Shown in pieces: positions 1 to 5,396 of a DNA stretch of 5,396 bases. Origin of the DNA: a virus (Duplodnaviria > Heunggongvirae > Uroviricota > Caudoviricetes); the IMG/VR virus record IMGVR_UViG_2663763280_000004. One strand, given 5' to 3'. The position numbers were made by a program, and so were the translations under genes. The notes beneath the pieces were generated by a model, which was given only the letters and a program-made list of their open reading frames with translations, was not told the origin of the DNA and did no database searches. How positions within the stretch are numbered: the first letter of the stretch is position 1; every line of letters begins with the position of its first letter.

Positions 1-2
1 CC

Positions 3-104
3 GTGCGCGTCGAGCCGATCGCCGATCAGCGCGCCGCCGAGCAGTACGTGATTGACGAGTACAACAAGTTGAAAACTCGCCTGCGANNAGAGCGCCTCTT
101 ATAA
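3..104 (+). CDS. 3' end of an unidentified CDS (partial, frame 3), reading ...VRVEPIADQRAAEQYVIDEYNKLKTRLRxERLL*; product not recognised
   Basis: Only frame open across 1-101, stop TAA at 102-104. Bases 1-50 are visibly GC-rich compared with the rest of the window. The frame passes through the N calls at 87-88 and overlaps the next gene. By synteny it could be the end of the usher gene yraJ, but the peptide does not look usher-like, so it may be a foreign fragment. Confidence 0.25.
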   Translation: MRVEPIADQRAAEQYVIDEYNKLKTRLRXERLL

Positions 105-1174
105 CAGGACTTTTGTTGATATCCACATCCTGCGCTTATGCCTCCTCAGGAGGGTGTGGAGCTGACAGCACTAGCGGTGCGACAAATTACAGCAGTGTGG
201 TTGATGATGTTACGGTGAACCAGACAGATAACGTGACAGGACGGGAGTTTACCTCTGCCACGCTAAGTAGCACTAACTGGCAATACGCCTGTACCTGCTC
301 TGCGGGTAAGGCAGTTAAACTTGTCTATATGGTCAGCCCTGTACTTACCACCACTGGACATCAAGCAGGATATTACAAACTCAATGATAGTCTGGATATT
401 AAAACCACATTACAGGCGAATGACATTCCAGGACTCGTGACTGACCAGACCGTTTCTGTTAACACCCGATTCACACAGATAAAAAGCAACACCGTATATT
501 CTGCTGCAACCCAAACGGGTGTTTGCCAGGGTGACACGTCTCGTTATGGACCCGTTAATATTGGTGCAAATACCACCTTTACCCTGTATGTCACCAAGCC
601 ATTTCTCGGCTCGATGACCATTCCGAAAACGGATATTGCCGTCATTAAAGGCGCATGGGTCGATGGAATGGGAAGCCCGTCTACAGGTGACTTCCATGAT
701 TTAGTCAAGTTATCGATTCAGGGAAATCTCACCGCCCCACAGTCGTGCAAAATTAATCAGGGCGATGTTATTAAGGTTAATTTTGGATTCATCAATGGTC
801 AGAAGTTTACCACCCGCAATGCCATGCCAGACGGTTTTACTCCAGTAGACTTTAATATCACTTATGACTGTGGTGATACTTCAAAGATTAAAAACTCGTT
901 GCAAATGCGCATCGACGGTACAACTGGGGTAGTAGACCAGTACAACCTGGTCGCCAGACGAAGAAGTTCAGACAATGCGCCCGATGTCGGTATTCGTATT
1001 GAAAATCTCGGCGGCGGAGTTGCAAATATTCCTTTTCAGAACGGTATCCTTCCCGTTGATCCTTCCGGGCATGGCACCATCAACATGCGCGCCTGGCCAG
1101 TTAATCTGGTCGGTGGTGAGCTGGAAACAGGAAAATTTCAGGGCACCGCCACCATTACCGTCATCGTGCGGTAA
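86..1174 (+). CDS. yraK: Fimbrial adhesin-like protein (YraK-like); start codon ambiguous
   Basis: Open frame ending at TAA 1172-1174; the ORF track starts it at TTG 113. Extending in frame to aNN at 86-88 gives (M)RAPLITGLLLISTSCAYA/SSGG, a typical Sec signal peptide with an AxA cleavage site, if aNN is ATG. That yields 362 aa. The position, convergent on rsmI, matches the yraHIJK-rsmI arrangement of E. coli K-12. The symbol rests on synteny rather than a recalled sequence. Confidence 0.6.
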   Translation, partial: XRAPLITGLLLISTSCAYASSGGCGADSTSGATNYSSVVDDVTVNQTDNVTGREFTSATLSSTNWQYACTCSAGKAVKLVYMVSPVLTTTGHQAGYYKLNDSLDIKTTLQANDIPGLVTDQTVSVNTRFTQIKSNTVYSAATQTGVCQGDTSRYGPVNIGANTTFTLYVTKPFLGSMTIPKTDIAVIKGAWVDGMGSPSTGDFHDLVKLSIQGNLTAPQSCKINQGDVIKVNFGFINGQKFTTRNAMPDGFTPVDFNITYDCGDTSKIKNSLQMRIDGTTGVVDQYNLVARRRSSDNAPDVGIRIENLGGGVANIPFQNGILPVDPSGHGTINMRAWPVNLVGGELETGKFQGTATITVIVR

Positions 1175-1216: not shown

Positions 1217-1600
1217 TTACCCCTGCTGCTCCAGCGCATACTTATACAGCGCATTTTTCTTCACGCCGTGAATTTCTGCCGCCAGCGCCGCCGCTTTTTT
1301 CAACGGCAGTTCTGCCTGTAGCAGCGCCAGCGTGCGCAGGGCATCGGCGGGTAAGTCTTCTTCCTGTGCTTTATGACCTTCGATAATCAGCACCATTTCG
1401 CCTTTGCGACGGTTTTCATCTTCTTTTACCCACGCCAGCAGCTCGCCAACGGGCGCGCCGTGAATGGTTTCCCAGGTTTTGGTCAGCTCACGCGCCAGAA
1501 CCACGTAGCGGGATTCGCCTAATACCGCAACGATATCTTCCAGGCTATCTAACAGACGGTGGGTGGATTCATAAAAAATCAGCGTGCGCGGCTCCGCTTC
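1217..1600 (-). CDS. rsmI: 16S rRNA 2'-O-ribose C1402 methyltransferase RsmI (YraL), C-terminal ~127 aa only; 5' part absent beyond the junction at 1601
   Basis: Minus-strand translation reads [72 protein letters not shown]...YKYALEQQG*, which matches my recollection of the E. coli RsmI C-terminus. The frame is not continued past nn at 1601-1602. Confidence 0.85.
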
Positions 1601-1602
1601 NN

Positions 1603-1731
1603 GGTATTGCCTTCGACGGCGATGGCGATCGCGTGATTATGGTCGACCATGAAGGCAATAAAGTCGATGGCGATCAGATCATGTATATCATCGCGCGTGA
1701 AGGTCTTCGTCAGGGCCNGNTGNGTCGTGGC
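1603..1731 (+). pseudogene. glmM: Internal fragment (about 43 codons) of phosphoglucosamine mutase gene glmM, with no start or stop of its own
   Basis: Plus-strand translation [38 protein letters not shown](Q)(L)R contains the phosphohexomutase metal-binding loop DGDGDR and matches recalled E. coli GlmM. N calls at 1718, 1720 and 1723. The frame runs into a stop at 1735-1737 after leaving glmM-like sequence. Confidence 0.7.
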
Positions 1732-1882
1732 TTCTGATTTTTGCCATGAGTTCATCAGTCAATTCAGAAACCCACTGCAGAGCCAGCCCCTTCTCTTCAT
1801 CACTACACTCACTAGCCGCTACAAGCTTAAGAAAAAAATCAATGCGCTGGAGCTTCAAAGACTCCAAAAAATAGTCCTGCAT
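1732..1882 (-). CDS. Small prophage ORF, N-terminal ~50 aa only, behind a LexA-box promoter; possibly a Tum/DinI-like SOS-inducible antirepressor. 3' end lost at the junction
   Basis: ATG at 1880-1882 (minus) preceded by AGGAGG (complement of 1887-1892). Translation is MQDYFLESLKLQRIDFFLKLVAASECSDEEKGLALQWVSELTDELMAKIR. It lies immediately downstream of gene A in the same orientation, as tum does in phage 186. The functional guess is by context only. Confidence 0.45.
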
Positions 1883-1907
1883 CTTTCCTCCTATGACACC
1901 AAAGCAA

Positions 1908-1942
1908 TACTGTATACATAACCACTGTTTATATTTACAGTA
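1908..1942 (-). promoter_or_regulatory. LexA (SOS) operator with overlapping putative sigma70 promoter for the small ORF
   Basis: 1923-1942 CACTGTTTATATTTACAGTA fits the LexA consensus TACTGTATATATATACAGTA, with exact CTGT-N8-ACAG and an AT-rich spacer. An adjacent half-site TACTGTATA sits at 1908-1916. On the minus strand a candidate -35 TTTACA (complement of 1960-1965) and -10 TATACT (complement of 1939-1944) overlap the box, although the 15-nt spacing is short. Confidence 0.6.
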
Positions 1943-2034
1943 TATAATAATCTTACTGATGTAAAACGTTTTTTTACGTTCATCAGCCTGATATGCCTGG
2001 TATTATTAAGAGCACGAATTGTTAACCCGCGTAA

Positions 2035-4449
2035 TTAATACAGATTCCGCCACTTATCATCTTCCCGCAAACGCTGGTTCCGATAGAAGATACGCAGGCC
2101 TGCTCCTGACGGAATACTGCCACCGCGAAGGAGTAAATCGACCTCTTTCTCGCTGCCATCAAATCCTCTGGACTTCAGTTCATAGACGAGCTGCTGTCGC
2201 TGATGATCTGTAATTCGCTGTTTGTAGTCTTTACGCCGTTTCGGCTTAACCAGGCGTAACCTTGCTGCCAGTTCCCGGCGCTCTTTTTTGCTCATACTGT
2301 GCAGGTAATCGTGCAACTCCTTGTCATCCATGCGGGTAATGTCCGTTCTGGTGTCCCCATCAGCTGATTTATCTTTCTCCTGTTGGTTCAAATTTTCCGC
2401 AAGGGGACAGTTATTGCCACGAGTCCAAGGGGCGCAAGCGCCCTGGTCGGCTGCCGCCTCCTGAACGTCAACGGCCTTACGAACCATTTTCCACTTCACG
2501 GCATGAGTGCAGATCTTGCCCTCTGCAATAGGTGACCAGATGCCATAAATACGAATGCCGTGATCGCCATAGGCGGTCGGCTCTTCGTTGATTTCATAAG
2601 CGGTTCTGATGAGGTGATATTTGCGGGGAACCAGTACGCCGCCCTGCTTCATGATGTAGGTGGCAAAACAACCAGCATCAGCAGCAGCCAGAATGGCATC
2701 AAGGCGCGGGTTATCCAGTACCGGCGCACCTGCTTTTTTGTCACCCTGCTGCCTTGCCGCCTGACCAGCCAGCAATCGCAGTTCACGGTAAGCCTGACGC
2801 CCCGGAATACCAAAGAAGCGGAATTGCTGAACACGATGCAGAGACGCCCAGGCATTCACGTATTCAGCGTTATCACGCAGAGATTTACCCGTTTCCTTGC
2901 TGATCTCGCCAGCCAGACCACGCCCGTCAATGTTCTTACTGATATATTTCGCGATGTAGCTTGTCGGCGTTCCTTTGCGCGGATTAATCAGCTCAGACTT
3001 AAAGCGCGGCCCAGTGTTATTTCCCAGCTCCTCGCGGTCTTCACGGATGGCAAACTTACGCAGTAATGCAGTGATGGCGCGGCGGTCTTTTTTGCGCATA
3101 AAACACAACAGGTGCCAGTGAACTGTACCGTCATGATGCGGCTCAGCCACCCGCACGCCATACCACCGCAATCCGGCTTTGTGCATCGCCTTACGAAATG
3201 CAGCAAACATGCCGACCAGATAATCACTGCTTTGTCTTACCGTCGCATTTGTCCAGGTCGGGTTGGGCCTGCCGTTATTTAGCGTGGAATGGAAACGTGA
3301 CGGACAGGTGATGGTGTAGAAAACGGCGCAGTCACCGCGCATTTCCGCGATAAGCTCCAGACCTTTAACACAGGCCATCATCTCATTGCGGCGATGCGCA
3401 GGGTTGCTGCTGCTGGCGTTTACCACATCCTCCATGTCCAGCGTGTCGCCGTCTTCGTTCACCAGTTCATGAGAACGGAAAAACTCCAGCGACTTACGGC
3501 GCTGCTCACGTTTATGCAACACGGCTTCATAGCTGACATAGGGAGATGCTTTTTTGCTGACAAGGCAGACAGCACGCAACTGCTCTTCCCGCCATTCGCA
3601 ACGCATCTTCCATAATTTCCGATACCACCAGTCGGCGCACAACATACGCGCCAGCGAACCCGGAATGAGTTCATAGGGCACGGGTTTACGGCGGTTTCTT
3701 TTCCGACGGAGTTGCTCAAACGCAGGAGGGATGACATCCAGACGCAGGGTTTCCGCCGCCACCCTTTCCCATGTCTTGCGGATTTCTTCTGGCTTAACGT
3801 CATCGGTGGCATACAAATCGCCACAAGCTGCATCAAGGCACATGCTCATATGCGCAGCAACAAGGGTGGACAGGCGTTTCACCTGATCCTGACTCATTTC
3901 AGGCAGAATCAGCAGGCCGTCCAGCCCTTCATGGCTTGCCATAAAGCGAAAAGAAGTGGATAGCTGACTGTCGCGTACATGCTCCAGCCGTTCCAGACAT
4001 GGCTTAATCGTCTCACGCAAATAGCGGGAATAAGCCTTTGGCCTGCCCAGGCTGCTGAAGTATTCAATACGTTGCATCAGCGGCCTGCTGATATGGGAAG
4101 GCTGGGCGTTAACGTCCGCCAGTATGACCATGTCCGGATTAAAACGCTGCTGCTCATGCGCCAGCTTTGCCCGGCTAATGAGCTTATCCTGCTCCATTTC
4201 GCGTTGGACAGGATCACGGGATTCATTAAAGAAATAACGCTCCCAGACCTGATCACTCAGTGCCTCGCGGCGCAGTTGTTCCTGCTCGTTATCGGCAGCG
4301 TACAGAGTGATCAGGTTTGAAAGCGCAGAAACCGGCGCAACTTCCGCCGGGTCCAGATAAGGGTTAATAGCCTTTTTCGGGCTGTTCCATGAGAATGCTG
4401 CGGCGACCTCGTTAACGCCGCTGCAGTTGTTCATATCGGCATGACTCAT
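2035..4449 (-). CDS. Phage P2 gpA-family replication initiation endonuclease (rolling-circle initiator)
   Basis: 804-aa ORF with GGAG 7 nt upstream of the ATG. It contains the metal-binding motif [13 protein letters not shown] (HWH at 3112-3120) and the twin-tyrosine motif [12 protein letters not shown] (Tyr codons 2956-2958 and 2944-2946). Both match my recollection of P2 gpA ([25 protein letters not shown]). Confidence 0.9.
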
Positions 4450-5110
4450 GCACGTACTCCGTACACGGCAGAACTATCCACGCCACGTGAATAATCAAAT
4501 CCCACCCAGCAGCGCGGCCCGGAAACAGCAATGATTTCTGTTGCAGATTTACTCTCGCCAGCCGACACGCCGATGCTGCGTTTTGCCTTGATGTAGTGGT
4601 GAGTGAAATTGCGATACAGCGAACGAATCAGGGATGTGTCACTGTTAGAAACAATGACCGGATGACCTTCAGATGATCGATGTTCAAGAACGGATGCCAG
4701 GTGATACTGGTCATCTTCAGTGAAGCCGTCAGTGTGATAACCGGAAAACGTGCCGTCATACGGCGGATCGCAATACACCACATCCCCCGCGTGCAACATC
4801 GCCAGCGTTTCATCGAAGCTGGCGCAGATAAACGTTGCCCGCTGGGCTTTTACTGCAAATGCACGAATTTCTTTTTCAGGGAAATACGGATTTTTATAAT
4901 TACCGTAGGGAATGTTGAAATGCCCGCTCTTGTTATAGCGACATAAACCACGGTAACCGTGACGATTGAGATACAGGAAATATATCGCTTTCATGAAATC
5001 AGTAATTTCAGTTGAGTAATTAAACTCCTGCCTTATGTTGTAATAATCCATCTCCCTGTTTGCGTTCTCAAATAAAACTCTGGCGCGAGATATAAACGAT
5101 TCACAATCAG
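4446..5110 (-). pseudogene. dam: Phage-type DNA adenine methyltransferase (Dam-like), 5'-truncated by IS1 insertion
   Basis: Minus-strand translation from the IS1 boundary reads DCESFISRARVLFENANREMDYYNIRQEFN...[18 protein letters not shown]...VVYCDPPY.... This aligns with E. coli Dam from about residue 68 onward, including the DPPY catalytic motif. The N-terminal ~67 aa carrying the AdoMet-binding motif are missing; the frame continues into IS1 sequence and stops at 5199-5201. Stop TGA (4446-4448) overlaps the gene A ATG (4447-4449). Confidence 0.85.
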
Positions 5111-5396
5111 GGTGATGCTGCCAACTTACTGATTTAGTGTATGATGGTGTTTTTGAGGTGCTCCAGTGGCTTCTGTTTCTATCAGCTGTCCCTCCTGTTC
5201 AGCTACTGACGGGGTGGTGCGTAACGGCAAAAGCACTGCCGGACATCAGCGCTATCTCTGCTCTCACTGCCGTAAAACATGGCAACTGCAGTTCACTTAC
5301 ACCGCTTCTCAACCCGGTACGCACCAGAAAATCATTGATATGGCCATGAATGGCGTTGGATGCCGGGCAACAGCCCGCATTATGGGCGTTGGCCTC
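5111..5396 (+). mobile_element. IS1 insertion sequence, left end, continuing past the window edge
   Basis: 5111-5133 GGTGATGCTGCCAACTTACTGAT is the IS1 left terminal inverted repeat. The following 286 bp match recalled canonical IS1 almost base for base. Confidence 0.95.
5166..5396 (+). CDS. insA: IS1 InsA, partial (77 of 91 codons), GTG start
   Basis: Translation from GTG 5166 reads [77 protein letters not shown], which is canonical InsA. The ORF-track entry 5137..5349 is a different frame. Confidence 0.9.

Follow-up and report, generated by a model that had tools for sequence, protein, structure and literature searches.

Does the stretch of DNA analysed here (5,396 bp, hereafter the window) record a chromosome in which rsmI, a scrap of glmM and a prophage truly adjoin one another, or were these sequences brought together only while the data were being produced? 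The question arises from a sequence-only reading of the window, in which chimeric joining with read-end quality decay had been proposed at two junctions marked by ambiguous base calls. The window is the reverse complement of a complete draft contig, CCCB01000255.1 of assembly GCA_000945835.1, with an exact match. Comparison of its parts with reference genomes and with other assemblies of the same DNA leads to the conclusion that its N-marked joins, three in number, are very probably absent from the bacterial chromosome and would have been made in the course of producing a fragmented draft assembly.

Composition of the contig

BLAST searches against 5,426 complete E. coli genomes, combined with base-by-base alignment to reference loci, resolved CCCB01000255.1 into five blocks, ordered as a piece of fdhF (1-85), a yraK-rsmI segment (86-1600), a piece of glmM (~1603-1724), prophage DNA (1725-5110) and the end of an IS1 element (5111-5396). 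The contig is composed, in other words, of four E. coli pieces of separate origin followed by the IS1 end, each piece being 100% identical to reference up to its own join. It stops within IS1, a typical end for contigs built from short reads. Look-ups by ORF led to it through the truncated dam gene, which also retrieved the sister contig described below; the truncated yraK and rsmI ORFs gave other contigs only. An Rfam scan of the window found no RNA families, and its features are as follows.

1-85, plus strand: internal fragment of fdhF, about codons 682-710, the first chimeric piece; 85/85 nt, 100% identity to fdhF in complete genomes
86-1174, plus strand: fimbrial gene yraK without the first two bases of its ATG; 100% identical to strain M8 and others
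87-88: NN within the yraK segment, 1-2 nt past join 1 (85/86); parental bases AA by three-way alignment
1217-1600, minus strand: 3' portion of rsmI, 127 C-terminal codons plus stop; 100% identity to base 1600
1601-1602: NN at join 2; parental bases AA (rsmI) or TC (glmM)
1603-1724, plus strand: internal fragment of glmM, codons 237-278, including the DGDGDR metal-binding loop; Ns at 1718, 1720 and 1723
1725-1731: zone of join 3, TCGTGGC, common to glmM (TGGTGGC) and prophage; base 1726 prophage-specific
1725-1882, minus strand: prophage 62-aa ORF without its last 31 nt (10 codons plus stop); 100% identical in four other assemblies, which continue
2035-4449, minus strand: P2-family replication endonuclease gpA, 804 aa, intact; Pfam PF05840 on the identical protein, annotated as replication endonuclease
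4446-5110, minus strand: prophage DNA adenine methylase (dam) gene, first 193 nt removed by IS1; intact 285-aa gene in the same four assemblies
5111-5396, plus strand: left end of IS1, from its terminal inverted repeat GGTGATGCTGCC to the contig end within the element

The fdhF piece terminates ~19 nt upstream of the fdhF stop codon. Across 89-1600, the yraK-rsmI segment, in which the two genes are convergent, is identical at 1512/1512 positions to several complete genomes including strain M8, and the match halts at 1600, exactly where rsmI had been read as ending mid-gene; the cut falls on a codon boundary and leaves 127 of 286 codons, with codons 1-159 absent.

An internal piece of glmM had likewise been recognised on the plus strand from 1603, and 1603-1717 does match glmM throughout the 5,426 complete E. 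coli genomes, with 100% identity in many and no less than 90% in any. The piece is in frame (codons 237-278 of 445), and its Ns at 1718, 1720 and 1723 stand for A, C and C, respectively. Its reported length of 129 bp and the placing of the prophage start at 1732 required correction: the internal fragment and the switch near the Ns are real, but the glmM-specific stretch is 1603-1724 (122-127 nt), and the prophage begins at 1725, given that 1726 carries the prophage base C and that 1725-1731 otherwise fits both parents.

The glmM stretch occurs at 5,429 places in the 5,426 genomes, with a median of 1 per genome, and is single-copy in essentially all of them. No second copy recurring in related genomes was found among these 5,426 complete E. 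coli genomes, and in no genome of this set does the stretch adjoin rsmI or the prophage; a circulating glmM pseudogene fragment, or a real partial duplication, is argued against by the single copy across the species. Separate alignment to references places the pieces at separate loci, as had been anticipated from the sequence: in M8, GE3, RM10466 and CP027462 a distance of ~32 kb separates rsmI from glmM (in M8, 3,735,641 and 3,767,549), and their relative orientation is opposite; fdhF and the prophage map elsewhere, each at a place of its own that adjoins neither the yraK-rsmI nor the glmM matches.

Anatomy of the joins

Exactly seven ambiguous bases are present, at 87, 88, 1601, 1602, 1718, 1720 and 1723, with none elsewhere in the contig. 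All seven lie no more than 7 nt from one of three joins, and the remainder of the contig is error-free against the references; with join positions set by the limits of the BLAST alignments and not by the Ns, the placement of all three N clusters within ±8 nt of joins has a chance probability of ~8e-7. The Ns at 1601-1602, 1718, 1720 and 1723, beside the rsmI/glmM/prophage switches, stand at precisely the positions first given for them, and the third N-marked join, fdhF/yraK at 85-89, lies outside the two junctions then described. The restriction of Ns to the joins argues against real breakpoints, since the bases at a true breakpoint should be as easy to call as any others. A consensus N would instead indicate that almost no good read covered the base.

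At join 1 (85/86), where fdhF runs ...CTGCG and yraK (AT)GAAAAGAGCG, the contig reads CTGCGANNAGAGCG; yraK starts from the third base of its ATG, and the fdhF side is internal. Around join 2 (~1600), the parents are ...CCGCTTC(AA) in rsmI and (GATC)TCGGTATT in glmM, TC at 1599-1600 being common to both, and the contig has CCGCTTCNNGGTATT. For join 3 (~1725), glmM reads GGCCAGCTGCGTGGTGGC and the prophage ...TCGTGGCTTCTG, which in the contig appear as GGCCNGNTGNGTCGTGGCTTCTG. Only this last join shows a run of matches between its parents, a microhomology of 6/7 nt (T.GTGGC); over the three joins together, microhomology does not exceed chance, with 18/51 parent-parent matches within ±8 nt (p ~0.07, Monte Carlo).

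Two of the three breakpoints are intragenic on both sides, and that between fdhF and yraK falls on the third base of the yraK start codon. Alignment revealed no IS end, no target-site duplication and no att core or position at any of the three (85/86, 1600, 1725). The assertion that the joins respect neither gene boundaries nor mobile-element ends nor att sites is thus well founded for the rsmI/glmM and glmM/prophage breaks to which it was applied.

In an unrelated assembly, position 1 of contig DAPMNX010000064.1 corresponds to window position 104, 19 nt past the fdhF/yraK join. A genuine repeat or structural break may exist just upstream of yraK in some lineages, and such a break could explain a true contig end there.

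Search for the joins in other genomes

Joins 2 and 3 were searched for in complete genomes and in larger collections. A query covering both (1480-1860) was matched at 80% coverage or more in 0/5,426 complete E. coli genomes. Exact patterns with wildcards gave no match for join 2 in genome and viral collections and none for join 3 in metagenome and genome collections; the wildcard N in these scans perhaps does not match a literal N, and a real junction with ordinary bases would have matched.

The prophage segment and the IS1 junction

The prophage block (1725-5110) is the early region of a P2/186-family phage, carried on the minus strand. Four independent assemblies, drawn from human-gut metagenomes and two other draft genomes, match it at 3386/3386 positions: ERZ914049 (human gut), GCA_018806375.1, JGI 3300056428 and GCA_043676695.1. 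All four stay collinear across both ends; past 1725 they complete the 62-aa ORF and go on through a DinI-like gene to the portal and terminase genes, and past 5110 they enter an intact 285-aa dam gene. The identical prophages extend >10 kb beyond the 1725 breakpoint, and in the intact prophages the DinI-like gene comes next after the 62-aa ORF. By comparison, the allele is only ~97% identical to the best match among the 5,426 complete E. coli genomes, and its identity to Escherichia phage Cartapus is 96.7%. Judged from these alignments, it appears to be a circulating P2-family variant of which the 5,426 complete E. coli genomes searched contain no identical copy.

A perfect LexA-box-like palindrome, CTGT-N8-ACAG, is located at 1925-1940 of the window, between gpA and the 62-aa ORF/DinI-like genes (chance expectation 0.09). 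Such placement fits the SOS-controlled module of 186-like phages.

The junction at 5110/5111 is of another kind. It is exact at the IS terminal repeat, free of Ns and recurrent in a second draft contig, CDRT01001143.1, and it looks genuine. The complete genome NZ_CP170298.1 has IS1 in the same region, 2 nt further on (CAGCG|GGTGATG vs CAG|GGTGATG), which suggests, on sequence grounds, independent IS1 insertions at the same spot of the phage dam gene.

A sister contig with different joins

The second draft contig, CDRT01001143.1 (GCA_001373215.1, 2,089 bp), is identical to window 3703-5396 at 1694/1694 positions, shares the IS1::dam join with the window and stops on the identical IS1 base. In reverse-complement coordinates it is itself a mosaic, with nikB at 1-196, an internal part of lysP at 197-395 and then phage gpA. 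The switch lies to the left of the position matching window 3703, at which the window is collinear with phage. Both foreign pieces are internal fragments: that of lysP measures 199 nt, and that of nikB, an IncI1 plasmid relaxase gene, 196 nt. The best nikB matches (100%) are plasmids, with organism names that include E. coli O169:H41 and TW11681, which look like enterotoxigenic E. coli strains and may give a clue to the originating project. An NN at 389-390 replaces CC within a continuous parent, 6 nt before the lysP/gpA join, and the nikB/lysP join has no N.

The different join in CDRT01001143.1 could in principle be a strain difference between the two draft assemblies. The recurrence of the same signature, read-sized scraps with Ns beside a join, at a different place on identical DNA is what an artefact of the process, rather than a structure of the genome, would give.

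At least 7/9 of the Ns in the two contigs replace a parental A or C, and in the NGNTGNG motif at join 3 the Ns take the place of every A and C, the G and T positions alone being called. A base-calling failure in one channel of a single read might produce this bias, or it may be chance.

Origin of the joins

Taken together, the window is an ordinary chimeric draft contig, an assembly or library chimera, and the earlier reading, chimeric joining with poor base calls, is supported in its main point; read-end quality decay is the more conjectural part and would be confined to 7 nt or less, the sequence being error-free to within a few bases of each join. Most probably, read-sized scraps (85 nt of fdhF, ~125 nt of glmM) became attached to contig pieces that were themselves correct while poor-quality short-read data were being assembled, scaffolded, gap-closed or greedily extended. 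Each join would then have been supported by one or very few poor reads, and this low-quality support would be the reason why the consensus falls to N at the joins and nowhere else.

Several narrower explanations were considered and set aside. Restriction-site ligation finds a GATC in glmM directly at join 2 and none in rsmI, and at joins 1 and 3 no shared site is seen. Conflict between overlapped parents is a loose fit to the Ns at joins 2 and 3 and fails at position 88, which is A in both parents and N in the contig. The 2k-1 length of a de Bruijn bubble, as a source of the fragment sizes, meets ambiguous boundaries (123-129 nt), and the 199 nt of lysP do not fit it.

Among the alternatives, the one that survives best places the error earlier and is still an artefact: real chimeric molecules, formed in vitro in the library when short fragments of distant loci were ligated or template-switched (blunt-end co-ligation, PCR jumping or MDA-type chimeras), would have been assembled faithfully at points of interruption in the true path. 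The inserted scraps are of insert or read size (~125 nt of glmM, 199 nt of lysP), join 3 offers its microhomology T.GTGGC, and rsmI and glmM, 32 kb apart, are joined in inverted orientation; such a geometry is common in displacement-amplification chimeras. However, microhomology over all joins (18/51) stays within chance, a chimeric molecule does not by itself explain why Ns occur at the joins alone, and consecutive events within 1.7 kb, repeated in CDRT01001143.1, would demand a very high chimera rate. We consider this origin possible but unlikely.

Deliberate concatenation of small contigs with short N spacers, by the submitter or a pipeline, would account for the exact NN at two joins and for the NN in CDRT01001143.1. 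It is nonetheless very improbable: the Ns of join 3 are interspersed (NGNTGNG) within recognisable glmM sequence, the NN at 87-88 and that of the sister contig replace bases inside a continuous parent instead of separating two, and the nikB/lysP join has no N whatever.

Still harder to credit is a real, complex chromosomal rearrangement, in which break repair would have inserted short templated copies from fdhF and glmM where yraK-rsmI meets a truncated P2-like prophage, with the essential genes still intact elsewhere. Join 2 has the geometry that an inversion of 32 kb between rsmI and glmM would produce, the joins show weak microhomology, and the strain clearly has active IS1. Set against this, Ns stand at the joins only; joins 2 and 3 are absent from the 5,426 complete genomes and the scanned collections; other assemblies with the identical prophage DNA read collinearly across the breakpoints; CDRT01001143.1 carries a different NN-marked mosaic; neither an IS end nor an att core nor a target-site duplication marks any of the three joins; and at least three independent illegitimate events would be needed within 1.7 kb. 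That the contig records a real multi-breakpoint rearrangement whose Ns reflect a coincidental difficulty in sequencing novel junctions is the least probable of these readings.

A prophage att junction was rejected, the break at 1725 lying inside the 62-aa ORF between gpA and DinI, with identical prophages continuing on both sides and glmM flanked by prophage in 0 of 5,426 complete genomes, as was IS-mediated rearrangement at 85/86, 1600 and 1725, where no IS sequence is present and an IS end is found at 5111 only.

Consequences for the use of the contig

Calls drawn from CCCB01000255.1 are unreliable wherever they depend on the N-marked joins, including the truncation of rsmI, the loss of the yraK start, the glmM and fdhF pseudogene fragments and the position of the prophage beside rsmI. 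Its truncated and fused ORFs have already entered an index as gene calls. The finding of NN-marked chimerism in another draft assembly raises the possibility that the WGS sets CCCB01 and CDRT01 hold many such joins, which can contaminate pangenome, pseudogene and prophage-site surveys as well as protein databases. The value of the present case is one of quality control and warning only.

Comparison with known systems

The closest counterpart of the window is the class of chimeric short-read draft contigs, in which unrelated single-copy loci are likewise joined intragenically with ambiguous bases at the joins; as in that class, the contig ends in a repeat (IS1), and other assemblies of identical DNA lack its joins. 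It differs in the unusual density of its joins, three within 1.7 kb, and in their involving read-sized scraps.

Filler DNA and templated insertions from break repair, together with MDA chimeras, resemble the window in that short pieces of distant loci are set between breakpoints with little or no microhomology, but the Ns at the joins of the window and the result from the sister contig point to data processing. With P2/186-family integration, in which attL and attR lie beside the integrase or ogr ends, the window shares a segment of the P2-family early region (62-aa ORF, gpA, dam), whereas its join at 1725 falls in the middle of the phage map and not at an attachment site. The likeness to IS1 transposition junctions is confined to the join at 5110/5111, with its precise terminal inverted repeat and a near-identical insertion in a complete genome; the three N-marked joins differ from such junctions, having neither an IS end nor a definable target duplication.
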